DNA of 64,000 nucleotides from Burkholderiales bacterium (GTDB lineage: Bacteria > Pseudomonadota > Gammaproteobacteria > Burkholderiales > SG8-41): NCBI GenBank assembly GCA_019749945.1, contig JAIEPF010000016.1, positions 13,596-77,595 on the forward strand, given 5' to 3'. Both the position numbers and the translations under genes were made by a program. This document shows positions 1 to 53,137 of the stretch, one piece after another. Positions within the stretch are counted from its first letter, which is position 1. The number at the start of each line of letters is the position of its first letter. The notes beneath the pieces were generated by a model that worked only from the letters and a program-made list of their open reading frames with translations, had not been told where the DNA came from and did not search any database.

Positions 1-224
1 AAGGCGGTCGGTGCGCCCGTGCAGATGATCTCATGAGTGCATGATCATGGGGACATGAGTCAGGGATAAGTGCGGTGAAATGGGGCAGCGTAACGGTCCG
101 GACCGTTACGCGGGTTCCATGGATCGCCGCTTGCTTTAACCGGCAATCATTCAAGCGCCAGTGTTCCCGGTGGTTGCACTGGTCTGACCGGTACGGGCGA
201 ATCACGGGTATCGCAAAAGCCGGC

Positions 225-548
225 TCAAGCGATACCGGCAAACACCGCGAGTGAGCGATTGACCTTGAGCATCGTGGCGTCGTCGAGGCGGCCGATCACG
301 GCGCCGACCCGTTCCCGCGGCACCGACAGGATCTTGTCGATCTGGATTTGCGAGATGTTTTGCAGCCCGTTGTCCGGCCCCGGGTCCACCGTGATGCGGA
401 AGATGGGCGCGTTGCGCAGCTCGCTCGTCACCAGGCACAAGGCCACGCTGGGCAACTCGTCGAACAGGTCCGACTGGATGACCAGCGCCGGGCGCGGTTT
501 GCCGTAATCCCCGGGCGCCGCAACGGTCACCAAGTCACCGCGCCGCAT
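225..548 (-). CDS. Type II toxin, PemK/MazF family
   Basis: 107-aa ORF. N-terminus MRRGDLVTV...GKPRPALVIQSD and size are typical of PemK/MazF toxins. Overlaps the upstream small antitoxin ORF by 14 nt. Confidence 0.8.
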   Translation of the reverse strand: MRRGDLVTVAAPGDYGKPRPALVIQSDLFDELPSVALCLVTSELRNAPIFRITVDPGPDNGLQNISQIQIDKILSVPRERVGAVIGRLDDATMLKVNRSLAVFAGIA

Positions 549-747
549 CGTCCGTCCATGCCGCGGTCTGGCCGATGAACGCCAGCGCTTCGGTTTCAGC
601 CGGGTCGCCGCGCAGCAGCGCCGACTGGCGGCGGCATTCCGCTGCGAACACCGGCGAACGCGTGTCGGGCACCCAGAGCTGCACCAGCCGCAGGCCCGAG
701 GCCCGCTGCCGCACGCGGTACTTTTTCATGCGTTCGTTGACTTCCAT
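535..747 (-). CDS. MazE-like antitoxin (DUF3018-type)
   Basis: 70-aa ORF directly upstream of and overlapping the PemK/MazF ORF. The pattern MKKYRxRxRxxGLRxVQxWVPD is typical of the DUF3018 antitoxin family. GGGGG Shine-Dalgarno lies before the ATG. Confidence 0.7.
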   Translation of the reverse strand: MEVNERMKKYRVRQRASGLRLVQLWVPDTRSPVFAAECRRQSALLRGDPAETEALAFIGQTAAWTDDAAR

Positions 748-756
748 GGCGCCCCC

Positions 757-783
757 GTAACATGTTACGCAGCCATGTTATGG
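757..783. promoter_or_regulatory. Candidate operator of the MazEF-like operon
   Basis: Perfect 12-bp palindrome GTAACATGTTAC (757-768) and a second CCATGTTATGG element (773-783). Both share CATGTTA and lie 10-36 nt upstream of the antitoxin start. Confidence 0.3.
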
Positions 784-1040
784 CAACCGGAAGGCAGAAG
801 CAAGCCGTCATCCGATGGCAAACTCACCATCAAACAATCAATAACTATCTGTTTTTAATACAATAATTAAGTCAGCAATCACTCACTTCAGGACCCGGGC
901 GGCCGTGATCACCCGGGTCATGGTGATCACGGAATCCGGGATTGTGCCGATTCATGTCGGCAGCCATGACGAGGTGTATTGAGGGCTGAGTTTAAGAACC
1001 GGTGATGCAGGCCAGATCAATCGATACCGGTACCGGGGGC

Positions 1041-1616
1041 TCACTCGAGCGCCAGCGGCAACGGCCGGCCGTGGGCGATCAGCGTGTCGCGGATGAAATC
1101 CCGCCATTGTCGGGCGGGCTGCCACACGCGCAGCACATCATCGTAGGCCTGGTCCGGGTCTTCCTTGAGTGCAATCGCACGGTACAGGAATACGAAGCTC
1201 GAGGCGCGCAGGTTGATCTGGCAGTGAACCAGCACGCGTTTACCGCGCTGCGAATCGAGTATGCGCGCAAACTGTGCAAAGTCTTCAGGCATCGGCGCCG
1301 CAAAATCCACCGGGATATTGAAATAGCGCATGCCGCGCTGGGTCACCAGTGCCTCTTCATCGTCATGCGCACCCAAAACATTCGCCGGCGCCAGACTGAT
1401 GACGGTATCGAATCCGGCATTGGCGATGCCGGCGAATTGTGATCGCGTCGGCATGCCGGCGGAAGAAATCCGGGGGGTGTTCTCCACATAGTTCAGCGCC
1501 AGCGGGCCGGGGCTGACCATGAAGGGCATTGCGACGCGGCCAAAGACGATCAGCCCCGCGATCAACATGGCGGTGAATGTCAGGTAATCTGCCAGACGTG
1601 AACGATCAGCGAACAT
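1041..1616 (-). CDS. Membrane-anchored dual-specificity/tyrosine phosphatase-like protein (CX5R)
   Basis: N-terminal hydrophobic helix followed by the HCQINLRAS motif (HCX5R-S/T P-loop). Start chosen at the second ATG, which is preceded by GGGGGA. Confidence 0.65.
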   Translation of the reverse strand: MFADRSRLADYLTFTAMLIAGLIVFGRVAMPFMVSPGPLALNYVENTPRISSAGMPTRSQFAGIANAGFDTVISLAPANVLGAHDDEEALVTQRGMRYFNIPVDFAAPMPEDFAQFARILDSQRGKRVLVHCQINLRASSFVFLYRAIALKEDPDQAYDDVLRVWQPARQWRDFIRDTLIAHGRPLPLALE

Positions 1617-1674
1617 GGTTCCCCCGGATATCATGGGTCATCAACTGTGGTGAATCATTGACCTTCGTGACTCA

Positions 1675-1848
1675 TCAAGCGCACACGCAACCCTGCTCGG
1701 CGCCCTCGCAACCACAGGACTGCCTGCAATCGCATTGCGGCGGCAGGGCCATCGCCGGCGCGATGGAGGTGCCGGTCTGGCAGCCGCAGGGGCAGCCGGC
1801 GCCGGGGCAGTTGCAGCAGTTGCATTGGGCATTCATCGCCTGGCTCAT
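1675..1848 (-). CDS. 57-aa cysteine-rich metallothionein-like protein
   Basis: ATG at 1848 preceded by AAGGAAG. 13 Cys of 57 residues in CxC/CC/CxxC clusters, with no His or aromatic residues. It is the 3' part of a longer 199-aa ORF in the track. Confidence 0.55.
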   Translation of the reverse strand: MSQAMNAQCNCCNCPGAGCPCGCQTGTSIAPAMALPPQCDCRQSCGCEGAEQGCVCA

Positions 1849-2094
1849 GAAAAACTTCCTTATTAACAAGTATTTATGGTTGCGGACGGGCTTGTCCGAC
1901 ACCGGCATTGTGCTGGCCGGGCGCGTTTTCCACTTGAATGAAAGGGCTGACTTGCGGCGGGAAGGATGCAGCGCGTGAGCACCGCGCAGATTCGTGCGCC
2001 AGCCGCGGCGAAGCCCGTGCGCATCGCCGCACTCAAGATCGGCGTCGGGCGCGTCTGCATGTGACAGGGTGGCAGCCTGTGGATCGGGCGCGAG

Positions 2095-2802
2095 GTGGGG
2101 CGCGCGCAGCCCCACGCCCACCACGGCATACAGATCTCTCTGTCGCTGGATGGACCCGCCGGAAAACTCCTGCTGCGCAGTGGCACAGATGGCGAGTGGC
2201 CTGCTTTCAGGGCGGCCATCGTCAGGCCCAACCGCCGGCATGCGTTCGACGGCCTGGGCGGTTCCGTCGCCCAACTCTTTGTCGAGCCCGAAACCGTGCG
2301 GGGCCGCAGCCTGCTCAAGCGCTATGCGGTGGAGGACATCACCGCATTGCCGCTGGAAATGATTGAACCCGCATTAAACCGGCTGGCGAAGCGGTATGCG
2401 AAGGGCGGTGACATTCAGGCGCTGGTCGCGATCAGCCAGGGCATTGTCGACACGCTGGCCGGTGCGGAGCGCGCGCAACCTTCCGCGAATCCGCGCATCG
2501 CGGCGGCGATCGAATTCATCTCGCAGCACATGACCTCAACCCTCACGCTGCAGCAGGTGGCGGCCGCGGTGCATCTGTCACCCAGCCGACTGCGGCACCT
2601 CTTCGTGCAGGAAACGGGGACCACCTATCGTGGCTATGTGCTGTGGCTGCGCATCAACCGTGCAGTGGTGGCCATGATGGATGGCCGCAGCTGGACCGAG
2701 GCGGCCCATGAAACCGGATTTGCCGATTCGGCGCATCTCAGCCGGACGTTTCGGCGGATGTTTGGCATTTCGCCGGCGATGTTGATCAAGGAGAAGCGGT
2801 AG
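2095..2802 (+). CDS. AraC family transcriptional regulator
   Basis: C-terminal double HTH region (LTLQQVAAAVHLSPSRLRHLF ... FADSAHLSRTFRRMFGISP). The start codon is uncertain. Confidence 0.8.
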   Translation: MGRAQPHAHHGIQISLSLDGPAGKLLLRSGTDGEWPAFRAAIVRPNRRHAFDGLGGSVAQLFVEPETVRGRSLLKRYAVEDITALPLEMIEPALNRLAKRYAKGGDIQALVAISQGIVDTLAGAERAQPSANPRIAAAIEFISQHMTSTLTLQQVAAAVHLSPSRLRHLFVQETGTTYRGYVLWLRINRAVVAMMDGRSWTEAAHETGFADSAHLSRTFRRMFGISPAMLIKEKR

Positions 2803-5345
2803 GTAATCTCAATAAATCGACCCGGTAACGAAGGTTTTTCTCGGGCTCTCTTCGGATAGGATCTTGTCATTCGAGATGAGTGAATCGAACAAGAGGGAGT
2901 GAAAAAAGGATTAGGAACTTTTGGTTTTGTTGGCCCTATTTATATCTAGGTGCTGCAAATTGTTTTGGCGATAGCCAAGAGTTCACCTGGTATTTTTTCC
3001 CTTGTCACGGATAATTGTTTGATGAGAGAATTTTGTAGCGGTATTGAATTCGAGATCCCAAACCGCTTGGCACACATTGCAAGAAGTTCCTTGCCGGGAA
3101 AGAGTTGAAGCCATTGGTCAGAGTTCAACGCGCCCGCCACTTGCTTTTCCGCTGCATTAAGAACTTCATTAATGGCCGATTCAGACAAGGTTGTTTGAAA
3201 TTCAGCATGTATGCGTTGTGTGGACTCAAGGAGTTTAGTGCGCAGTATCTCTTGATGCTGAGTGACAGGAGTAACGCTACCGATAGTAAAGTACGACTCC
3301 GAAGTAAGTATTCTCCCAAGTGAAAAGTCTTGCGGTCTAACGGTCAAGTTGAGTCGGAACGCGACCATATCTCTGATAACGCTAGACGAGAGCTTATACG
3401 CATTCTCAAGAAAAATAGATTTTAATTCGACGGGAGTTTTTTGGAGCTGAAAAACTTCGGCAAGTACTTTTTGAATAAGCTCGAAATCAAGTAGATAGTT
3501 TTCAAGTTCGTGGCTTGACAGTACAAATATCCGTCCTGATGGGTGGGAACGATAACTATTGACCATTTCCTCAGTTAGATAATCCCGATCGCGTATAAGA
3601 GAAAATCTCATCCAGCCAAAATTGGCCTCCAAGATTGAGAGTATTGCCGCGTTAATACGATTCAGGGCGCCACTTGCTGTTGCGGGAATAAGTTTGACGG
3701 CCGCGTCGTCTTCTGAAAAAACGCTAGAAAAAAGTTTTCTGTCTTGACTGGTATTTTCGCCCTCTAAAAAGACAAGATTTTTGGCGACGCCGATGTATCC
3801 GGAGAAGCCAAATAAGTTTCTTAGTTCAGCTAGCGCCTCATTTTCATCGGTTGCTGCGATAAGTTTTGATTTCCGAGTCGCGGCGTCACGTGCTAGGTAA
3901 AGAACTTTGTCTCGTCCCGCCTCATCAATTATTTCGGCATTGTGTGTGGCCACCCATATCTGGTTTCCTGCCTTGATGGCTTTGATGTTTTGAATAAGTA
4001 GTCTTGACAATTCCGGGTGCAAATGAAGCTCGGGCTCATCGATAACAATAATTGCATTTTCGACGTTGTGACGAATAAAAAATGAAAGGATAAAAAATAC
4101 TTCTTTCTCTCCGGACGACAGATCGTTGAAAGTGATGACTTCCCCGGAGGGGATTTGAATAAACAAGTTCGAAGGAACTGGTTCATCGGGATTTGAAAAT
4201 TTGTATTCAGGAAAGAGTCTACTCAATAACTTTTCGTACGGAACAAGTGGGTCTTCAGGTTTTTGATTGACGGCGGCACCTTTGTTAATGGCGTCGTGAT
4301 ATGCGCCTAGTGCACGCAAATAATGGTAACGTTGCTGCACTAAAAACTCATACATTTCTCGATACTGAATGTCGCTGGTATTAAATGCCATCGACCACAA
4401 ATGCTCTTTGCGGCTAACGGTTTCAAATTCAAAAATTTTGTTGCGATCGAAAGATCGTTGAGGGTAGTTTCGATCTGCACGTAAAAAGAAACCTAAGGAG
4501 CGTTTAAGAATGTCTTTTAACTCTCGGGTGGCATACGAATGTAAATGGTTGTGTAAAGATTGGTCTTTTTGATATTCACCTTCAGTGTAGTTAAAGGCGC
4601 GATAGTAAATATTGCTCCGTCCTAGATACTCAAGCATTTGAAGGTGATGTTTGTATCCCCTGTTGTATTCTTCGGTTAACGCTTGGGTTCTTGCGGACTT
4701 TTGTTCAGGTGTGAAATCAGATTGCGCTACTACCCCCAATATTTTTTCATTGAGCAGTTTTTTGGGCTCCGATAGTTCATGATTTAGTTTGTCTCGAATG
4801 ATTGAGCATTCCTCCAACGTTAGTCCAATTCCAACCTCAAACGAAAAGCTTTCAAATGTTCTACCTAAACTCCAGTTCAGGCTGTAAGAGTTTGATAGCG
4901 CGTAACTGATGAGTTCTAGAACCGAGCTCTTTCCGCTGCCATTTGGACCGGCGAAGGCAATTAGATCAGAGAATTTTCCGAATAGATGTAAGGGGCCAAT
5001 AAACTCATTTTCTAAATGGCGAAACTTTTTTATTGAAACTGAGCTGATATACATTGGTGCGGCTCCTCATTTCCTATTTAAGCGTTTCCGAGGTAGTGAT
5101 GGGTCATATGTTTGTTGCATCAAAAGCAATATTTCGAACTAAGAATGGATGCGTGAGTTTGATGGCTACTTTCGTCAATAAAAAATTAGGGACCCAGTGT
5201 TTGTGCGGCCAGTTACATTTATAACAACTTAAATCCCTTTTTCAGCAGCTTGTTTGCACTTGAAATTCTCTCTCCTTGTTGTTCAATCCACGGCTTATCA
5301 AGGTCTAATGATGCGATTGCATCTGAGCTACGGCACCGAGATTCC
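2803..5345. mobile_element. AT-rich genomic islet (probable horizontal acquisition; no recombinase gene present)
   Basis: Composition changes abruptly from GC-rich to AT-rich immediately after the AraC stop. It returns to GC-rich at the duplicated lyase 3' segment near 5350. Confidence 0.55.
2946..5054 (-). CDS. ABC/AAA-type ATPase fused to a DUF4435/TOPRIM-like nuclease domain (OLD / PARIS AriA-AriB-like defence candidate)
   Basis: 702 aa. Walker A GPNGSGKS (aa 36-43), ABC signature LSSGE (312-316), Walker B IIVIDEPE (335-342), H-loop THN (370-372). These are followed by FLEGENTSQD (429-438), IRDRDY (487-492) and HELENY (515-520), which resemble TOPRIM/DUF4435 acidic motifs. Confidence 0.8.
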   Translation of the reverse strand: MYISSVSIKKFRHLENEFIGPLHLFGKFSDLIAFAGPNGSGKSSVLELISYALSNSYSLNWSLGRTFESFSFEVGIGLTLEECSIIRDKLNHELSEPKKLLNEKILGVVAQSDFTPEQKSARTQALTEEYNRGYKHHLQMLEYLGRSNIYYRAFNYTEGEYQKDQSLHNHLHSYATRELKDILKRSLGFFLRADRNYPQRSFDRNKIFEFETVSRKEHLWSMAFNTSDIQYREMYEFLVQQRYHYLRALGAYHDAINKGAAVNQKPEDPLVPYEKLLSRLFPEYKFSNPDEPVPSNLFIQIPSGEVITFNDLSSGEKEVFFILSFFIRHNVENAIIVIDEPELHLHPELSRLLIQNIKAIKAGNQIWVATHNAEIIDEAGRDKVLYLARDAATRKSKLIAATDENEALAELRNLFGFSGYIGVAKNLVFLEGENTSQDRKLFSSVFSEDDAAVKLIPATASGALNRINAAILSILEANFGWMRFSLIRDRDYLTEEMVNSYRSHPSGRIFVLSSHELENYLLDFELIQKVLAEVFQLQKTPVELKSIFLENAYKLSSSVIRDMVAFRLNLTVRPQDFSLGRILTSESYFTIGSVTPVTQHQEILRTKLLESTQRIHAEFQTTLSESAINEVLNAAEKQVAGALNSDQWLQLFPGKELLAMCAKRFGISNSIPLQNSLIKQLSVTREKIPGELLAIAKTICST

Positions 5346-5432
5346 TTGGTCTGTGGTCCCCCCAACCCCTTCCGCCCAAACACCATATATTCCGCACTGA
5401 TCACCTCGCGGAAATCCGCTGCCGTCAGGGGC
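5219..5432 (-). pseudogene. Displaced 3' fragment of the argininosuccinate-lyase-like gene
   Basis: Translates to ISAEYMVFGRKGLGGPQTKE, matching ISAETMVFGRKGLGGPQVKE near the C-terminus of the 6255-7706 gene. It has no N-terminal part. Confidence 0.6.
5351..5431. repeat. Direct repeat copy A (~81 bp, about 88 percent identical to 6402-6482)
   Basis: Aligned by eye: ctgtggtccccccaaccccttccgcccaaacaccata... versus ctgcggcccgcccaaccccttccgcccgaacaccata..., with 10 mismatches and no gaps. Confidence 0.8.
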
Positions 5433-5478
5433 GACCAATGGGGTCATGGGCGACCAATGCTAGGACCAATGGGGTCAG
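5433..5478. repeat. GACCAATGGGGTCA repeats next to repeat copy A
   Basis: GACCAATGGGGTCA occurs at 5433-5446 and 5465-5478, with a half copy CGACCAATGC at 5451-5460. Each unit has GACC/GGTC inverted arms. Confidence 0.5.
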
Positions 5479-5518
5479 GTCTAGCAAAGTAGCTCGTCCC
5501 TACATCCTGGCCGGTGAC

Positions 5519-5881
5519 TTAAGCCGCCTTGCGCGCCCGGGCACGACTCGGCACGCGTTTGGGGCCGGGCGCAGTCGAGTGCGCCGCGTTGAACGCGGCT
5601 CGAACTGCGGCCGGTTGTTTTGACGCGACCAGCAGCAGGGCGCGCGCGGGGCCATGCGGCTCTCGCCGGGCCTGCTCCCAATTGCGCAGCGTGCCGAGGC
5701 TGACGCCCATGAAGCCCGCGAATTCGGGCTGTGACAGGCCCAGTTCCTTGCGGATGGCCGGTACGTCAGCGGCAGTGGGCATGTCGACGACGTGGGTCTT
5801 CAGCTTCACTTCGCCACGGCGCCAGGCCTTGAGCTCTTCAAGGCCGGCGATGATTTCTTTGCCGATGTTGCGCTTGTTCAT
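5519..5881 (-). CDS. XRE-type HTH antitoxin (HigA-like)
   Basis: 120 aa with the HTH segment LGLSQPEFAGFMGVSLGTLRNWEQ. It lies downstream of the RelE/HigB-like toxin and overlaps it by 4 nt (ATGA). Confidence 0.8.
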   Translation of the reverse strand: MNKRNIGKEIIAGLEELKAWRRGEVKLKTHVVDMPTAADVPAIRKELGLSQPEFAGFMGVSLGTLRNWEQARREPHGPARALLLVASKQPAAVRAAFNAAHSTAPGPKRVPSRARARKAA

Positions 5882-6192
5882 TTGAATTCCTCAATGAGTT
5901 TGACCACTTGCTTCAGTTCGGCGGCGCTCAGGTTTCCTTTTTCGCTTTTTCCGTACAGCGTGAGAAACATGATCTGGTCTTCCGCCGTGAGCCAGTAATA
6001 GATCACGCGCAGGCCGCCCGACTTGCCCTTGCCGCCGGCGGCCCAGCGCACCTTGCGCACGCCGCCGGAACCGCGGATCACCGCGCCGGCGTCGGGCTGC
6101 ACCATCAGGTGGTTCTGCAGCGCCCGATAGTCTTCGTCGCCGAGGTATTCCCCCCGCAGCTTGCTGAACAGGCTGGCTTCGATGAATATCAT
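5878..6192 (-). CDS. RelE/ParE-superfamily toxin (HigB-like)
   Basis: 104 aa. The segment GGVRKVRWAAGGKGKSGGLRVIYYW...MFLTLYGKSEKGNLS is typical of HigB-type toxins. The toxin-first gene order matches HigBA. Confidence 0.8.
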   Translation of the reverse strand: MIFIEASLFSKLRGEYLGDEDYRALQNHLMVQPDAGAVIRGSGGVRKVRWAAGGKGKSGGLRVIYYWLTAEDQIMFLTLYGKSEKGNLSAAELKQVVKLIEEFK

Positions 6193-6254
6193 GGAGGAAT
6201 ATACGCCGTTGACGTATAGTAGGTCAATGACGCAGTATCGACTGTGGCCGGAGG

Positions 6255-7706
6255 TTACACCGGGCCGCCGTGCAGCGCCTGGAACGCACGATCGGCATGA
6301 GCCGCGCTCCGCGAGAGGTTTTCCGCCTTGTTGTTACGCCATGCCGCGCAGGCGCTGGCGAGGGTTCGGGTCGTTGCGAGCATGCGCTGCGTCTCTTTGA
6401 CCTGCGGCCCGCCCAACCCCTTCCGCCCGAACACCATAGTTTCCGCACTGATCGCCTCGCGGAATTCCGCTTCCGTCAGCGGCAGTTTATCCTTCGCCTG
6501 TTCCTCGTAAATCCGCTGCGCTTCGCTGTAGGGGATTTCGTGGATTTTCAGGCCCTTGCCGCGGCCGTAGTCGGTCAGCTTGCTGGCGAAATGGTGGCCG
6601 GTGCGGAAGGGCACTTCAGCTTTTTGTAGCAGGGCGTCGGCGATTTCGGTGGTGGTGGAGTAATCGGCGTTTACTTCTTCCAGCGCGCGTGCCTTGTTGA
6701 CCACCACTGCATCGACCACGCTGCCGAAGAGTTTGAACACCGTCAGCGCGCGGGCATAGGGCACCGGGTCATACATGCGGTAATCAAACATGCCGGTGCG
6801 GTTGTTGTGCGCGACAAAGGTCATGGTCTGCATTTCACTGAGCAGGATGCTGGACTGCGCGCGCAGTTGTTCGAGGGCGGCGGGGTTGCGCTTCTGCGGC
6901 ATGATGCTGCTGGTGCCGGTGAGTTCGCCGCTGCCGAGCATGAACCACGGTGTCGGGTTGGCGTACTGGGTGTGCAGGTCCTGCGCGAACATGCCGGTCT
7001 GCACCGCGGTCATCGCCCAGGCATTGGCGACGTCGAGCGCGCTGTCGATGGGTGCCAAGTGGTTGGCGTCGTAGGCGTTTTCGACCAGCCCGACAAAACC
7101 CAATAACTCGGCTAAGCGGTGCCGGTCGAGCGGGAAGCTGGAGGTCGCCAGTGCCGCCGTGCCCAGCGGGCATTGGTTCACCCGCGTGTAGGCCTGCTGC
7201 AAGCGCTCGGTCGCGCGCGCGAGGGCGGATTCAAAGGCCAGCAGGTAATGCGCGAACGTCGTCGGCTGCGCCTGCACGCCGTGGGTGTAGGCGGGGATGA
7301 TGGTTTCGATATGTTCTTCCGCGCGTTTGAGCAGTTTCTCGCGTGCTTCGATCAGCGCGCCGATGGTGTGCAGCAGGCCGTCGCGCAGGTTCATCCGCGC
7401 AATGGTCGAGGCCAGGTCCTGCCGGCTGCGGCCGGTGTGCAACCGCGAGGCTTCCTGTCCGGCGACGGCGATCAGGCGCGGTTCGTAATCGAGATAGTCC
7501 GCGGAGGTACGCTTCTCACCCGTGCGTTCATTTTCAATCACCTGCGCGATGCCCCTGGCGATGCGCTGCGCAACGTCCTTCGGCACGATGCCGGTCTCGG
7601 CGAGCATGACGATCGAGGCCTTGTTGATTTCATCCAGCCATTCAATCGAACGGCCGCCGCCGCGGAAGCTGGCGTTGATGTCGAGGGTGTGTGCGGAGTC
7701 GCTCAT
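6255..7706 (-). CDS. Argininosuccinate lyase-like enzyme (fumarate lyase superfamily)
   Basis: 483 aa with the fumarate-lyase signature GTSSIMPQKRNP and ArgH-like length and N-terminus. Confidence 0.85.
   Translation of the reverse strand: MSDSAHTLDINASFRGGGRSIEWLDEINKASIVMLAETGIVPKDVAQRIARGIAQVIENERTGEKRTSADYLDYEPRLIAVAGQEASRLHTGRSRQDLASTIARMNLRDGLLHTIGALIEAREKLLKRAEEHIETIIPAYTHGVQAQPTTFAHYLLAFESALARATERLQQAYTRVNQCPLGTAALATSSFPLDRHRLAELLGFVGLVENAYDANHLAPIDSALDVANAWAMTAVQTGMFAQDLHTQYANPTPWFMLGSGELTGTSSIMPQKRNPAALEQLRAQSSILLSEMQTMTFVAHNNRTGMFDYRMYDPVPYARALTVFKLFGSVVDAVVVNKARALEEVNADYSTTTEIADALLQKAEVPFRTGHHFASKLTDYGRGKGLKIHEIPYSEAQRIYEEQAKDKLPLTEAEFREAISAETMVFGRKGLGGPQVKETQRMLATTRTLASACAAWRNNKAENLSRSAAHADRAFQALHGGPV
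6402..6482. repeat. Direct repeat copy B (inside the 3' end of the lyase-like gene)
   Basis: Partner of 5351-5431. Confidence 0.8.
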
Positions 7707-7823
7707 GTTTTTTTCGAGGTGGTTGATGTGGCTGGATACTCATACCACGGTGCTGTCGGGGCGTCATTCCGGCGGAGCCCGCTTTTTGGCTGCGCCGGGA
7801 TGGCGGCGAATCATTTTAAAAAT

Positions 7824-7844
7824 ATCAATAAAATCAATTATTTA
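7824..7844 (+). repeat. AT-rich 21-nt motif ATCAATAAAATCAATTATTTA (family member 1)
   Basis: Near-identical copies at 62557-62577 and 54029-54049 (reverse complement). Contains an exact match to the IHF core WATCAANNNNTTR. Confidence 0.6.
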
Positions 7845-8413
7845 CAATCATTCCCCGCAGCGGGCTGCACGGGCTCTGCATACCGTGCCCTGACGCGCCG
7901 GCGCCACATCACCAGCAGCGGAATCACGATGGCGCTGGCGACGATATAGGCGAGCAGGATCAGCCAGGTGTTCATCTGCTGATCGGTTTCGTGCTTGAAA
8001 GTCTCGCGGTAGTCCATCAGCCGCTGCCCCTGCTGGTCGATCTGCCACGGCCGGTTGCCGAGGGCGGGATGCTGTTCGTACCACAGCGTGATTTCGCTGC
8101 CGCGGCGCAGTGCGCGGCTGGTGCGGGCATAGGCGCCGGGGTCGTTGCGGCGTCCGCTGTCGATGATGTATTCGGTGTCGGCGCCGCGCAGTTGCAGGTG
8201 CAGCGTGTACACATCGGGGCCGTGGCGGACGTGGCGCGAATCCTCGCTCAGGCGGTCGATGATGCCCGAGACCTGGGTCAGGTCGTCGCGGCCGGGGATG
8301 GACTGGTTCTGCAGCGCGAGGTTGGCCATCACAATGCCGAACACCAGCCAGAGCATTGCAAAAATCTCGGGGCGGTAGCGTTTGACGAATTCAGAGTCGC
8401 GGAGGCTGGTCAT
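7838..8413 (-). CDS. Hypothetical membrane protein
   Basis: 191 aa from ATG 8413, with predicted N- and C-terminal hydrophobic helices. The longer 303-aa ORF extension looks non-coding. Confidence 0.55.
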   Translation of the reverse strand: MTSLRDSEFVKRYRPEIFAMLWLVFGIVMANLALQNQSIPGRDDLTQVSGIIDRLSEDSRHVRHGPDVYTLHLQLRGADTEYIIDSGRRNDPGAYARTSRALRRGSEITLWYEQHPALGNRPWQIDQQGQRLMDYRETFKHETDQQMNTWLILLAYIVASAIVIPLLVMWRRRVRARYAEPVQPAAGNDCK

Positions 8414-8763
8414 CGGTCTGTGCTCAGCGGCTGCGTTCGGCCGGGCGGGCTTGGCCGCGGCAGTCGGCCTGGGTGTCGCGGGCGGAATCAGGCAAGGCAG
8501 CCCCCTGAAAACATGAATTGAATCAATTTCTTGTAAGGGATCCCGGGTTTGGCATCCAGCCTGGCGTTTCAGTTGGCAAAGTACTGACCCGGTTGTTATC
8601 GAGGGCCTGGACGGCACGGGGTGCGCGCAGGCACAAACGAGAATACACGGGATGCCATGGCTTGTGCTCGTGTGATCAACGGATGATTCCGCAATGTGTG
8701 GGGGCGTATGCCGGTAAGATGGGTCCTTGCGGCGGCAGTGGCGGGGCATAACGGGAGGCGCAG

Positions 8764-9405
8764 ATGGAATTTCTGAACATGATGGGCAGTCAAGGCGTCC
8801 GGCTGTGGCTGGCGCAGGCGACGGTGCTGTTTTTTCTGATGGGCGGTGTTGTGCTGCTGGGCATCGGCGTCAGTCTGCTCGTCAACAGCGCGCGGGCCCT
8901 GCGCTTTTTCGGCAGCATGAACCGCTGGGTGTCGATGCGCAGCGCGTCGAGGCCGCTGGAGATTCCCCGCGATACCCGGCAGGCGGTGCAGCAATACCGT
9001 TACTGGCTGGCGGCGGTTTTTGTCGCCGGCGGCGTGTTTGCGGTATTCAGCCTGCTCACCCAGTTCAAGGCCGCCGCAGTGGTGAACCTGTTCGGCCTCG
9101 ATTTCATGCGGCCGGCAGTCGCGGGCTGGCTGGTCGACAGCCTGCGCTGGATGCTGATCGCCGGCAACCTCGCCGCTGTGGTGGCCGGCATCATGCTCGC
9201 TTTTTTCCCCGATGCCGTGGTTGCGCTGGAAGCGCGCGGCAGCCACTGGTATTCGGAGCGCAAGATCACCAAGGGCGCCGATGACATGAACACCCGGCTC
9301 GATGCCTGGGTGACGGTTTATCCGCGGGCGGCGGGCGGCATCATCGTGGTTTTTGCGCTGGCGCTGATCGGCGCGTTCGGACTGATCCTGCCGAAGGTCT
9401 GGTAA
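8764..9405 (+). CDS. Hypothetical multi-pass membrane protein
   Basis: 213 aa with about 5 hydrophobic segments. GGGAGG lies upstream of the ATG. Confidence 0.6.
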   Translation: MEFLNMMGSQGVRLWLAQATVLFFLMGGVVLLGIGVSLLVNSARALRFFGSMNRWVSMRSASRPLEIPRDTRQAVQQYRYWLAAVFVAGGVFAVFSLLTQFKAAAVVNLFGLDFMRPAVAGWLVDSLRWMLIAGNLAAVVAGIMLAFFPDAVVALEARGSHWYSERKITKGADDMNTRLDAWVTVYPRAAGGIIVVFALALIGAFGLILPKVW

Positions 9406-9812: not shown

Positions 9813-10437
9813 TATTGTTTCGGGCCCTTTTGCCGTGCCCGGTGGTGCTGAAGGATGTGCGTGCCGCCAGCCGTGCGGCGAGCCGCGCCAGCGCCGGGTG
9901 TGATCCGCGCCATGCGTAATCCGGCAGCGCGAAGTCGAGATAACCCAGCGCGTAACCGGTGCTGATGTCGGCCAGCGTCAGGCGGCCGCCAAAACACCAG
10001 TCCTTGGTCCCCAGATCTTTTTCCAGCAACGCGAGACCGCGGTCTATTTTTGACTGCTGCTTGGCAAACCATGCGGCGGAGCGCTGCTTCTCCGCCGGTT
10101 CGCGGTATTCGTGGTTGATGGCAACGGTGGCTTCGGCGATGCCGTCGGCCAGCGCTTCCCAGCGTTTGACCTCGATGCGCGATTCAAAATCTTCCGGAAT
10201 CAGTTTCGCTCCGCTGCCGAAGGCATCCAGGTATTCGACGATCACCGGCGAGTCATACAGCGCGCGGCCGTCATCGCGTACCAGCGTCGGGATCTTGGCC
10301 AGAGGGTTGAACGCGGGCACCGGGGAATCCGGTGTCGAGGCGCGGGCGACGATGTACTCGCATGGAATGTTTTTTTCTGCAACAAACACGCGCACCTTGC
10401 GCACAAACGGGCTTCCCGGCGTGCCGAACAGTTTCAT
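9799..10437 (-). CDS. Glutathione S-transferase
   Basis: GST N-terminal thioredoxin-like pattern (MKLFGTPGSPFVRKVR...IPTLVRDDGRALYDSPVIVEYL) and matching length. Confidence 0.85.
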   Translation of the reverse strand: MKLFGTPGSPFVRKVRVFVAEKNIPCEYIVARASTPDSPVPAFNPLAKIPTLVRDDGRALYDSPVIVEYLDAFGSGAKLIPEDFESRIEVKRWEALADGIAEATVAINHEYREPAEKQRSAAWFAKQQSKIDRGLALLEKDLGTKDWCFGGRLTLADISTGYALGYLDFALPDYAWRGSHPALARLAARLAARTSFSTTGHGKRARNNINPA

Positions 10438-14629: not shown

Positions 14630-15106
14630 TCAGGAGAGTGTCAGTTCGAAGCTGGCGCGCAAGGTGTCGTGGTCGAGCAGTGTCCGCGCATGAACGCTGT
14701 TGCCGGTGTCACCGCCGCGCTCGAAATGCAGTTCGGCGTAATGGGGCCCGCCCGCCGGGGGCGTCACATAAACATGCATCGGCTGGAGGCCGTCGGCGGA
14801 CTGATGCGGGGCATCGCTGCTGAAAACAAAGCGGCCGTCGGCATCGCTGATCGCGCCGCAGCGGTCGATGCCGGGTTTGCCGCACATGGGCCAGGCGAGG
14901 ACCGCGGCGCCGGCGAGCGGTCGTCCATCGGCTGCAATGAGGCGTCCGGAGACGACCATCGTAGTGGCGTGGGGCGCGGCAGCGCAATTCGCGGGCGCGG
15001 CACGGGCGGTGCGCGTGGCCGCAAACCAGGCGGCGGGGACCGCGGCCATGGCGGTGCCGGCGATCATCAGCTGTCTGCGCTGCAGCGATATCAAATCAGG
15101 TTTCAT
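14630..15106 (-). CDS. Tat-signal exported protein, beta-sandwich (dioxygenase/carboxypeptidase-regulatory-like)
   Basis: Twin-arginine motif LQRRQLMIAG, then VSGRLIAADGRPLAGAAV...DADGRFVF. Confidence 0.5.
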   Translation of the reverse strand: MKPDLISLQRRQLMIAGTAMAAVPAAWFAATRTARAAPANCAAAPHATTMVVSGRLIAADGRPLAGAAVLAWPMCGKPGIDRCGAISDADGRFVFSSDAPHQSADGLQPMHVYVTPPAGGPHYAELHFERGGDTGNSVHARTLLDHDTLRASFELTLS

Positions 15107-15404
15107 CTGCGCATCCTCACGGTATCGTTGTCCGTTTCTTCGCCCCTTGCCGAAAGCTCGGGAACACCGCACTGCTGCGCCATCATACGCCGCGCTTGTG
15201 CTTGCGGGTAAGTTTGCGTGCGGCCGGTTCGAGGCTTAAGATATCGTCATATAAAGCGACGATCTGCTGCCAGAGGATCGCGCGGTGTCCCGGGGAACGC
15301 CAGAACAATAATAATTCGAAAACATCTCGAAAAATAAGCGGTTATTGCCGACAGATTTGGACGCCGGCATTTAACTCCGGTGTTCACGTCAGCGAGGGAC
15401 CACC

Positions 15405-16337
15405 ATGAAGCTCATGTATTTCAACGATTTCCGCCTGGGCGTACTGAAGGGTGACAACGTCGTCGATGTCACGACTGCGGTACAGAATATTCCACATACC
15501 GGGCCCGGCAACCTGATCAACGGTGTCATCGAACGCTGGGCTGATGTGCGCGGCGCGCTTGAACGCGCCGCCGCATCCGGCAGCGGCCTGCCGGTGAGCC
15601 AGGTCAAGATCCGTCCGCCGCTGCCCAAACCCGTCAACGTCGATTGCATGGCCGTCAATTACATGGAAGACGGCACGCGCAAGGAGCCGGCGCCGATCAA
15701 TGCCTTCCACAAGTCGCCGGGCTGCATCATCGGCCACGGCGACACCATGGTGATGCCGGATATTCCGATTTCGATTCTCGAGGGCGAGGCCGAGATGGCG
15801 GTGGTGATCGGCAAGCGCGCGCGCAACGTGCCGGCGGCAAAGGCGATGGAGCATGTCTTCGGCTACGTCAATTTCATCGACGGCTCGGCGCGCGATGCGA
15901 CCAAGCTTGGCAATTCTTTTTACCAGGTGAAGTCCCGGGATACTTTTGCACCCATCGGCCCGTATCTGGTCACCGCCGACGAAATCAAGGATCCGCTCAG
16001 GCTGCAGGTGCGGCTGTGGGTCAACGGGGTGATCAAGCAGAACTACAACACCAGCGACATGGCGCACAAGATCGACCGCTGCATCGAGTGGATCTCAGGC
16101 ATCCATGACCTGGAGCCGGGCGACATCCTCGCCACCGGCACCAATCACCGCGGGCTGTCGAGTTTCCAGGACGGCGACACTGTCGATCTGGAAGTGGAGG
16201 GGCTGGGCAGGCTGACGATCAGGGTGCGCGACGACCTGAAGCGCACCTGGGCGCGGGAAACCCGTCTCGAGCGCGAGCAGAAGGGCCTCAAGGGGTATAC
16301 GCCGCAGCTGAGCGGGAAATACGCGCCCACCGCCTGA
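15405..16337 (+). CDS. Fumarylacetoacetate hydrolase family protein
   Basis: 310 aa with the FAH-family core (GEAEMAVVIGKRA...FIDGSARD). Confidence 0.85.
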   Translation: MKLMYFNDFRLGVLKGDNVVDVTTAVQNIPHTGPGNLINGVIERWADVRGALERAAASGSGLPVSQVKIRPPLPKPVNVDCMAVNYMEDGTRKEPAPINAFHKSPGCIIGHGDTMVMPDIPISILEGEAEMAVVIGKRARNVPAAKAMEHVFGYVNFIDGSARDATKLGNSFYQVKSRDTFAPIGPYLVTADEIKDPLRLQVRLWVNGVIKQNYNTSDMAHKIDRCIEWISGIHDLEPGDILATGTNHRGLSSFQDGDTVDLEVEGLGRLTIRVRDDLKRTWARETRLEREQKGLKGYTPQLSGKYAPTA

Positions 16338-16461: not shown

Positions 16462-17529
16462 ATGAGCATACGCAACACGGAGCACTGCTGCGCGGACGAT
16501 GGCGGCATCATTTTTACAGGCTGCAACATGAGCAATGCCGCGCAGGGACAGGCCGGCGGACGGCGCCGGCAGGTGATGGTCGGCGGCAAGCGCGTCAAAA
16601 CCATCGATGTACACGCGCATTGCGTGGTGGGCGAGGCGCTGGCGCTGCTCGGCATGAAGGTTGCGGACCAGCGCGGTCCGGGCATCGGCGACGTCGGTTC
16701 GCGGCGCATCGCCGAAATGGACGAGCAGGGCATCGACATCGAGGCACTGAGCATCAATCCCGTCTGGTATCACGCCAAGCGCGATGTGGCGGAAGAGGTG
16801 GTGCGCATCCAGAACGAAAAACTGGCTGAATGGTGCGGCACCTATCCCGACCGCTTTGTCGCCTATGCCTCGGTGGCTTTGCAGTTTCCGGAGCTGGCGG
16901 CGCAGCAGCTTGAGCATGCGGTGAAAAAGCTCGGACTGCGTGGCGCCGCGGTCGGCACCAGCATACCGGGCAAGGAGTTTTCGGATCCCTTCCTGCACCC
17001 GTTCTGGAAAAAAGCCGAGGAACTCGGGGTGCTGATTTTTATCCACCCGCGCAGCACGCCGGAACTGGAGCCGCGCTTCAAGGGCAACGGCTGGCTTTCG
17101 AACACCATCGGCAATCCGCTCGATACCACCATCGCGCTGTCACACCTGATTTTCGACGGCACGCTCGACCGTTTCCCCGGCCTGAAAATCTGCTCCGCAC
17201 ATGGCGGCGGTTACCTGCCGTCGTATGCGCCGCGTTCGGACAACGCCCTGCGCGTCGCCCCCGAGATGGACACCGGCGTCAAGCTGAAGAAAAAACCGAC
17301 CGAGTATTTGCGTGACATGTATTACGACACGCTGGTGTTCACCGACGAAGCGCTGCGCCATCTGGCGGCGGAAGTCGGCGTCGACAAGCTGGTCATCGGC
17401 ACCGACCACCCGATTCCGTGGCAGGCCGATTCGGTCAATCACATTCTCAATGCGCCGGGATTTACCGACGCCGAGCGCCGCATGATGCTGAGCGAGACGG
17501 CGGCAAAGCTGCTGGGCATTCCCCTTTGA
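16462..17529 (+). CDS. Amidohydrolase 2 family (ACMSD-like decarboxylase/hydrolase)
   Basis: IDVHAHC metal-binding motif near the N-terminus and GTDHP near the C-terminus. The start is uncertain (16423, 16462 or 16528). Confidence 0.8.
   Translation: MSIRNTEHCCADDGGIIFTGCNMSNAAQGQAGGRRRQVMVGGKRVKTIDVHAHCVVGEALALLGMKVADQRGPGIGDVGSRRIAEMDEQGIDIEALSINPVWYHAKRDVAEEVVRIQNEKLAEWCGTYPDRFVAYASVALQFPELAAQQLEHAVKKLGLRGAAVGTSIPGKEFSDPFLHPFWKKAEELGVLIFIHPRSTPELEPRFKGNGWLSNTIGNPLDTTIALSHLIFDGTLDRFPGLKICSAHGGGYLPSYAPRSDNALRVAPEMDTGVKLKKKPTEYLRDMYYDTLVFTDEALRHLAAEVGVDKLVIGTDHPIPWQADSVNHILNAPGFTDAERRMMLSETAAKLLGIPL

Positions 17530-53060: not shown

Positions 53061-53137
<77 letters not shown>

Follow-up and report, generated by a model that had tools for sequence, protein, structure and literature searches.

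In the 64,000-nt window analysed here (Burkholderiales bacterium contig JAIEPF010000016.1, assembly GCA_019749945.1), a sharply AT-rich islet with a single gene for a 702-aa protein lies between a gene for an AraC-family regulator and an argininosuccinate-lyase-like gene, and the 702-aa protein was found to be a fused form of AriA and AriB, the two components of the phage anti-restriction-induced system (PARIS). Coordinates given without a locus number are positions in this window, and L-numbers denote loci or contigs from relatives or from assemblies of related samples. The AraC-family gene (2095–2802, + strand; Pfam HTH_18, E-value (E) 2e-20, and HTH_AraC) forms the distal conserved flank of the islet and the lyase-like gene (6255–7706, − strand; Pfam Lyase_1 and ASL_C2) the proximal one. 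Read along the lyase strand (−), the order is the lyase core (7706–6394), the end of the live lyase gene (hereafter tail A), a toxin–antitoxin pair (6192–5519), the sequence GACCCCATTGGTC, a relic fragment of a lyase core (copy B), a relic lyase tail (tail B) and the PARIS gene, with the AraC-family gene convergent and ending at 2802.

The islet was evaluated first by composition. The guanine–cytosine (GC) content of 2803–5345 was 0.422, compared with a mean of 0.623 and a standard deviation of 0.029 elsewhere in the window (500-nt windows; z ~ −7), and by sliding-window GC the islet was the sole stretch of the 64 kb below 0.52. Codon usage deviated too, the GC content at third codon positions (GC3) being 0.41 in the 702-aa open reading frame (ORF) and 0.73–0.88 in the neighbouring genes, so that the AT-rich islet claimed by a preliminary description of this DNA is real. 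That description had also placed both borders. Cumulative GC changed at ~2778–2803, in agreement with a flip directly after the AraC stop codon, but comparison with L018 and L089 revealed that native sequence runs past the stop codon at 2802 to ~2830 and includes an intergenic motif, TAAATCGACCCGGTAAC (2813–2829, +), which lies shortly after the stop codon and is common to the window, L018 and L089. The three sequences diverge after ~2830, and the variable AT-rich part, the hotspot allele of the following sections, therefore occupies 2830–5342 (GC 0.42). At the other end the change point at ~5330–5345 coincides with a 90-nt copy of a lyase segment at 5343–5432, which is where the flip back had been placed.

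The ORF at 2946–5054 (−) was the only long one within the islet, as had been noted before. The ORFs scanned to the left and right of the islet contained neither an integrase nor a transposase domain, and the only tRNA gene of the window is at 53061, so the borders do lack mobility genes and tRNA, as the preliminary description had stated. An Rfam scan of 2500–6500 gave no match, promoter and terminator sites in the islet were no commoner than in shuffled sequence, and a megablast search of positions 1–9000 against plasmids returned only a 56-nt match to argH.

The 702-aa protein (2946–5054, −) matched the PADLOC model PDLC02981 AriAB at E = 3.4e-140, with residues 1–697 aligned to profile positions 1–689 of 694, while the runner-up models were PtuA (4e-27), AbiLi (2.7e-19), GajA (6.5e-13) and Old (1.9e-12). 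Its N-terminal part, residues 1 to ~400 (3855–5054, −), is an AriA-like ABC ATPase covered by the Pfam domains AAA_15 (E 7e-21) and AAA_21 (E 8e-20) over residues 1–377. Among 36 homologues, the Walker A lysine K42 (in the sequence GPNGSGKS), the ABC signature LSSGE at 312–316, the Walker B residues D339 and E340 and the H-loop histidine H371 were all invariant. The C-terminal part, residues 405–702 (2949–3842, −), is an AriB-like Toprim/DUF4435 domain in which the acidic residues E431, D438, D489, D491 and E518 were invariant in the same 36 homologues. These have their presumed counterparts in the metal-binding acidic residues E26, D30, D88, E90 and E122 of Escherichia coli AriB; the correspondence was drawn from motif order and not from superposition. 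At E ≤ 1e-20, 355 homologues were obtained, nearly all of ~700 aa among the 120 listed, and the nearest were 74, 70 and 68% identical. Among the listed matches, many of the named homologues (~60% identical) came from Bacteroidota and a few from Betaproteobacteria, one of them Sulfuricella.

Since sequence and profile searches of the PDB gave a weak match to AriA and none to AriB, a comparison of folds was needed. An AlphaFold2 model of residues 405–702 (mean predicted local distance difference test score (pLDDT) 82.7) had only one match in the PDB at E ≤ 0.001, namely 8ux9_A (E 3.6e-5, probability 1.0, 321 columns), the 306-residue chain A of a PARIS complex, which from its size is taken to be AriB. 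The full-length model (pLDDT 80.8) matched only ABC ATPases in the PDB, its ATPase part resembling the folds of PtuA, retron ATPases and GajA.

Several observations weigh against an identification with PARIS. The Pfam DUF4435 match (residues 428–632) scored 25.8 bits, slightly below the cut-off of 27 bits. Similarity to E. coli AriA was weak and confined to the Walker B region, the single sequence matching the chains 8ux9_B and 8v45_A at E = 5e-6 and the family profile matching them at 3e-9. AriB was not found in the PDB by sequence or profile search and was recognised by fold alone, with a template modelling score of 0.38; a score this low suggests that the orientations of the sub-domains may differ between the model and the structure. 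Phage defence and tRNA cleavage are, moreover, activities predicted for the 702-aa protein from its sequence.

The related ABC ATPase–Toprim nuclease families nevertheless fit the protein less well. The OLD family, Gabija GajA and AbiL share its combination of an ABC ATPase with a Toprim nuclease, and its ATPase fold also matches GajA and PtuA, but their PADLOC scores stand far below that of AriAB, and the C-terminal domain matches AriB and not the Toprim domain of OLD or GajA. The domains of AriA and AriB both recur in the protein, their order unchanged, and the catalytic residues of both the ATPase and the Toprim domain are kept, although it is very distant in sequence from the proteins of E. 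coli B185. Fused AriA–AriB proteins have been reported (PMC11464382, PMC12409363). We concluded that the 702-aa protein is a single-chain PARIS, that the system is complete in one gene and that the gene belongs to a known, though unstudied, PARIS subtype, so that the gene type is not new. The ATPase–TOPRIM fusion proposed at the outset as a defence gene was thereby given a name.

Next to the PARIS gene lies a second, incomplete lyase end. Copy B (5343–5432, −), which encodes ...DFREVISAEYMVFGRKGLGGPQ, repeats 6394–6483 of the lyase gene over 90 nt with 86% identity, and it is 88–94% identical to the lyases of relatives. It continues in an open frame into tail B (5219–5342, −), 41 codons and a stop with the tryptophan/phenylalanine pattern of lyase tails (translation TKESRCRSSDAIASLDLDKPWIEQQGERISSANKLLKKGFKLL; GC 0.41, GC3 0.41). 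The live lyase gene itself ends in tail A (6255–6393, −), its last 46 codons beyond the conserved junction, which are GC-rich. Between the live lyase and the relic sits a GC-rich block composed of a HigB/RelE-like toxin gene (5878–6192, −; Pfam RelE) and a helix–turn–helix (HTH) antitoxin gene (5519–5881, −; Pfam HTH_3), hereafter HigBA, for which the NCBIfam matches were NadS/MqsA-like and below the family cut-off. HigBA and copy B are joined by GACCCCATTGGTC (5433–5476, −), a near-palindrome present there in two exact copies and one partial copy. It was found nowhere else in the window at 0–1 mismatch and was absent from the 89 loci searched (L001–L089).

The lyase, tail A and HigBA together are colinear with L094 at 85% identity; there, the colinear block is followed by an islet with Mrr enzymes, and no relic is present. 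A search with a hypothetical protein consisting of the lyase core and tail B, that is, without HigBA in between, found no such protein on record. The duplicated lyase piece and tail B are the relic of a lyase 3′ end of the kind that normally abuts such islets, as described below. Against TIGR00838 argH the lyase scored 261.9 bits, slightly below the cut-off of 279.5, and in relatives the gene is located among TctC/Bug-type genes, so that it may not be the housekeeping argininosuccinate lyase but a paralogue of it. It was also observed that tail A has a GC content of 0.68 and a GC3 of 0.61, as against a GC3 of 0.82 in the remaining lyase gene, and that tails of this type occur in P0223, P0141, P0150 and P0214 as well; tail A looks like a once-foreign tail that has partly adapted to the composition of its host.

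We then compared the lyase junction across relatives by a lyase-protein scan with one genome per species, which gave 80 loci, nearly all from metagenome-assembled Burkholderiales or Betaproteobacteria. DNA similarity to the lyase of the window ended at 6399–6403 in nine close relatives and at 6371–6403 in most loci, right after the codons for ...GRKGLGGPQ; the equivalent position in the relic copy is 5350. Directly after this junction, an AT-rich islet of 1.8–6.5 kb (GC 0.42–0.52 compared with ~0.63) was found in L005, L008, L009, L010, L013, L015, L016, L018, L019, L020, L021, L023 and L060. Relatives thus carry different AT-rich cargo at the same lyase junction, and not one and the same segment of uniform composition, which would have spoken against a foreign islet.

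At least 12 distinct cargos were found at the slot. Known defence systems were detected in eight cases: in addition to the PARIS of the window, these were SIR2 with HerA in L060, a BglII-type endonuclease with a methyltransferase in L016 and L023, a methyltransferase with a HATPase_c_3 protein and two further genes in L013, PDC-S60 in L020, a PD-T4-6/mad6-like kinase in L018, type IV Mrr enzymes in L094, and a Bil-like ubiquitin-type system (BilC JAB and a BilD-like E1/ThiF protein) with CapH/CapP-type regulators in L019 (L019:11888–16926). The other alleles carry genes with defence-like domains or unknown genes. L005 and L015 have a PPTase, an XRE-type HTH ORF (called from its sequence only), IrrE, a papain-like protease with a chagasin-like inhibitor domain, MazG_C and a 5-hmdU DNA kinase (L005:11449–17541). 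L010 has MazG_C, a ThyA-like protein and UDG/Panacea (L010:11545–14233), L008 an AAA_22 protein of 871 aa (L008:11409–14024) and L009 an AAA_22 protein of 815 aa with an HSDR_N domain (L009:11514–13961), none of the three cargos having a PADLOC match, and the two genes of L021, for 505 and 367 aa (L021:11498–14182), have neither a Pfam nor a PADLOC match. No recombinase, integrase or transposase domain was found in any scanned cargo protein.

The lyase gene does not merely adjoin the variable DNA but extends into it. Distant relatives, whose lyases are 62–72% identical, have a well-conserved, GC-rich tail (...GGPQLAEVNRMLAEER..AWL...LARAEAALE.AFAALA) and no islet. Within the clade, lyase cores are up to ~94% identical in DNA, yet the mean pairwise identity of the tails is 0.35, the random level; the tails have therefore not diverged in place, and tail and islet were replaced as one. 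The last ~45 codons of the lyase thus differ from allele to allele, and the reading frame stays open. All tails of the clade are 43–52 residues long and share a weak pattern (acidic at +3, basic at +5 or +6, W at ~+21, F at ~−6), and most are as AT-rich as their islets. Judged by these common features, they are homologous lyase tails that form part of the variable allele.

The proximal lyase flank was present at every locus. At the distal side, the AraC-family gene is the flank in the window, L018 and L089, and in L018 the slot is occupied by another cargo. The contig L089, a co-occurring variant recovered from the sample series of the window's relatives L084–L088, has an AraC flank that is 99% identical in DNA and then unrelated sequence, which is a different hotspot allele or an insertion next to AraC. 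After the shared motif, this sequence (L089:1059–1321, run SRR15085129) is GC-richer and was observed to contain the start of an ORF of 33 aa, MHASHIVARVLGGVQDLMHAGRFKALHDVAAAA, with no NCBIfam match and no match elsewhere among the sequences searched. In L005, L009, L010, L013, L021 and L060, the islet is bordered distally by the promoter region of a gene for a YdeN-like hydrolase. No terminal motif shared by the distal ends of the islets was found.

Taken together, these findings make it very likely that a clade of uncultured freshwater Burkholderiales has a lineage-wide core defence hotspot starting within the lyase 3′ end, and that the islet is one of its alleles. Three points count against this reading or against the exchange of alleles that it implies: no empty site, in which a lyase with its native tail directly adjoins AraC, was found; the same allele was not encountered in two genomes whose lyases clearly differ; and the common left junction, sharp to the nucleotide in more than 10 alleles, also fits a site-specific mechanism with its recombinase encoded elsewhere. 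The proposal of a foreign defence cargo without mobility genes is supported by the foreign GC3, the PARIS identity and the absence of integrase, transposase and tRNA at the borders, with the refinement that nothing suggests that mobility genes of its own were ever present.

Similar hotspots have been described in other bacteria. Core defence hotspots of Pseudomonas have low GC content and conserved flanks, 29–47% of their sites are without a mobile gene, and transfer by homologous recombination via the flanks has been proposed (PMC10250203; see also PMC10121019). The slot described here resembles P. aeruginosa cDHS1/2 and those E. coli hotspots that have no detectable mobile element in its core-gene flanks, lower GC content, variable defence cargo and frequent lack of mobility genes. 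It differs from them in that the islets are small (1.8–6.5 kb) and usually hold one system, in that the proximal border is inside a coding sequence, the allele carrying the last ~45 codons of the lyase, and in that the distal flank varies by sub-lineage (AraC, the YdeN-like hydrolase and others). O-antigen and capsule loci are alike in the proposed exchange of alleles. Islands in gene 3′ ends (tRNA, tmRNA and guaA-type) and cis-mobilizable elements (CIMEs) are alike in their 3′-end target and in that the inserted DNA restores the reading frame, but here there are no integrase, no bounding attachment (att) repeats and no conserved element ends.

Alleles are probably exchanged by recombination through the flanks. 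Whole alleles, tail and cargo together, would pass between related genomes through the conserved flanking sequence, by homologous recombination or by homology-facilitated illegitimate recombination, and no site-specific integration encoded by an element would be required. Lyase cores that are 94% identical but end in tails that cannot be aligned do show that tails are replaced. Incongruence between tails and cores was also considered as proof of horizontal transfer and was set aside as uninformative, similar tails always occurring with similar cores.

Scars of recombination between related chromosomes were seen at several loci, among them the lyase 5′ fragments of L010, L012 and L018 described below. 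The window and L020 contain relic lyase 3′ pieces of 90 and 243 nt, respectively, and L018 has an AraC 3′ fragment after its islet. L020 (L020:11592–13374) has two layers like the window: an intact divergent lyase (79% identical to that of the window), a GC-rich tail, a GC-rich gene for 452 aa, a relic and the PDC-S60 islet. Its relic covers lyase residues ~340–437, has an AT-rich tail and is 91% identical to the lyase of the window; it is closer to the usual lyase of the clade than the intact copy of L020 is. For the window itself, we propose as the simplest history an ancestor with the lyase, tail B, PARIS and AraC, into which the lyase, tail A and HigBA of a relative recombined, with homology as the anchor on the upstream side and an illegitimate join at 5432/5433, an event that would have left the older lyase 3′ end (5219–5432) as a relic beside PARIS. 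The reverse order, in which PARIS was inserted after HigA with a piece of its donor lyase, is possible, and the two histories cannot be separated because neither lyase copy is closer than the other to the lyases found in relatives. The unit of tail B and PARIS was not seen elsewhere: on the contigs of the closest PARIS homologues (L090–L092, 74–68% identical), the gene is not beside a lyase. Those homologues have other contexts, again AT-richer patches in GC-rich DNA, with an integrase fragment near one of them and an rve transposase and an HNH gene near that of Sulfuricella.

The explanation that competes best with exchange through the flanks is that the alleles are cis-mobilizable cassettes, each with an attP-linked replacement tail, which a tyrosine or serine recombinase from elsewhere inserts into an attB site in the lyase 3′ end; the 90-nt repeats of the window would then be attL/attR-type sites left by tandem insertion. 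This would account for a left junction that does not shift by a codon among more than 10 different alleles, and for the lyase tail of conserved length and pattern that each allele brings, as elements targeting gene 3′ ends do, and the direct repeat of 86% identity in the window fits as well. However, the scans of cargo proteins and of ORFs beside the islet of the window revealed no recombinase, and bounding att repeats around the islet were not found, the sole repeat pair bracketing HigBA and not the PARIS islet, with no copy at the AraC end. The analogous duplicate of L020 is 243 nt long and not 90, and the distal ends lack a common terminal motif. We therefore regard such cassettes as unlikely. 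The ~90 nt before the junction were also considered as an att-like core and rejected, their identity of 0.87–0.88 being within the range of other conserved lyase blocks in a sliding-window comparison; distant relatives without islets conserve these ~90 nt as well, and loci with an islet show no more than a mild drop of GC3 immediately ahead of the junction (0.73 compared with 0.85). Quite unlikely, too, is the broader proposition that the lyase 3′ end is the dedicated slot of an unrecognised site-specific mechanism, based on a recombinase from another locus or on a novel type of targeting, which cuts right after the GGPQ codons and in which each cassette brings a replacement of ~45 residues; if true, a metabolic gene would harbour an integron-like system by which defence cassettes are swapped.

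The hotspots in which PARIS was discovered are those of P4-like satellites and P2-like prophages (PMC11464382), and together with the foreign composition of the islet this raises a decayed phage satellite or prophage remnant from which the integrase and structural genes have disappeared. Around the islet, however, neither phage or satellite genes nor att-like repeats were present, and the sister alleles at the slot are equally without phage genes. Relatives of the PARIS protein were only 23–27% identical in IMG/VR, a collection of phages gave a partial match of 25%, and plasmid proteins gave only partial matches of 23–27% identity. A phage remnant is accordingly very improbable, and the gene differs from the described PARIS loci in being placed in a chromosomal core hotspot and not in a phage satellite.

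The locus structure was also examined in other assemblies. Independent assemblies from several runs (L001–L003 and L084–L088) reproduced positions 1–5387 at 100% identity, and L100 and L101 reproduced 5372–6484 at 100% identity, including the junction of HigBA with the relic; the two independent contig sets overlap by 16 nt (5372–5387). Because both junctions recur at 100% identity in independent assemblies, the structure, including the join at 5432/5433, is no assembly artefact. A chimera that arose at the conserved lyase block during assembly or binning, as might be suspected from short-read contigs of the same samples that all end inside this block (at 5387, 5372 and 6484), is the least probable explanation of all, given that both AraC–PARIS–relic and the HigBA–relic junction were recovered independently and that a repeat-induced misjoin would yield a lyase core with tail B and not a 90-nt fragment between non-lyase DNA. 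Strain variation was considered as the cause of the contig break at 5387 and rejected, the break being better explained by a 31-mer in the lyase block that is common to co-occurring species.

The intergenic motif at the AraC end has a wider distribution. A motif of ~17 nt, (A)AAATCGACYCCGGTAC, in most cases with an A-run before it and CTTT after it, recurs between genes and at many distal islet borders in the clade, with sites at 2813–2829 in the window, L005:17774–17790, L008:14068–14084, 15100–15116 and 16104–16120, L019:9087–9103, 9874–9890 and 17067–17083, L020:16523–16539 and L094:2356–2373. In L006 (5884–5927), L019 and L020, it forms inverted pairs that could fold into hairpins. The motif looks like a repetitive extragenic palindromic (REP)-like or terminator-like element of the lineage, and we rejected it as an islet-border signal, it being a lineage-wide intergenic element that is not specific to islets.

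Beyond the AraC-family gene, the window contains a second toxin–antitoxin pair at a distance of ~2 kb, with a MazF/PemK toxin (225–548) and a MazE-like antitoxin (535–747). Between AraC and a DSP-phosphatase-like gene, a cysteine-rich metallothionein-like peptide (1675–1848, −; …CNCCNCPGAGCPCGCQTG…CDCRQSCGCEGAEQGCVCA) was observed as the C-terminal part of a long minus-strand ORF, where public gene calls use the opposite strand. On the other side of the lyase, partial copies of the lyase 5′ end were observed in L010 (4623–4679), L012 (1220–1342) and L018 (4931–5095). These are 57–165 nt long and 83–98% identical to the resident gene, and they sit 2.7–5.3 kb upstream of the intact lyase with metabolic genes of normal GC content (TctC/Bug-type and others) in between; the upstream side of the lyase has therefore also been repeatedly rearranged.

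How a single-chain PARIS might act can be projected from the two-protein system, in which an oligomer of the ATPase is the sensor that holds the nuclease inactive, an anti-restriction trigger of the Ocr type binds in an ATP-dependent manner and unleashes the Toprim nuclease, and in E. coli the nuclease cuts host tRNA-Lys, so that translation stops and the infection aborts (PMC11464382, PMC12409363). By analogy, the ATPase part of the 702-aa protein would oligomerise and keep the Toprim part inactive until a phage trigger, for example of the Ocr type, binds in a manner dependent on ATP, and the activated Toprim part would then nick host tRNA, leading to a halt of translation and abortive infection. 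Taken literally, the published activation by release and dimerisation of free AriB is not feasible in a single chain. Since the two parts are fused, activation would not proceed via release of free AriB, and we speculate that it may occur by rearrangement or dimerisation inside the oligomer; the switch of a single-chain PARIS would then differ from the published one.

In sum, this is a known type of gene in a known type of hotspot, and what is modestly new is a border inside an ORF with swapped enzyme tails, together with sister alleles that have no annotation. The fused AriAB family, with its 355 homologues, is large and unstudied and makes a useful test case for PARIS activation. For the uncultured freshwater Burkholderiales clade, a small and clean core defence hotspot is added, whose conserved lyase junction is usable as bait to harvest defence genes from metagenomes. 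The alleles of L021, L008, L009 and L010, which are without known defence annotation, are candidate new defence systems, and the joint exchange of tail and cargo provides a natural experiment that can reveal what portion of its C-terminal tail the lyase needs.

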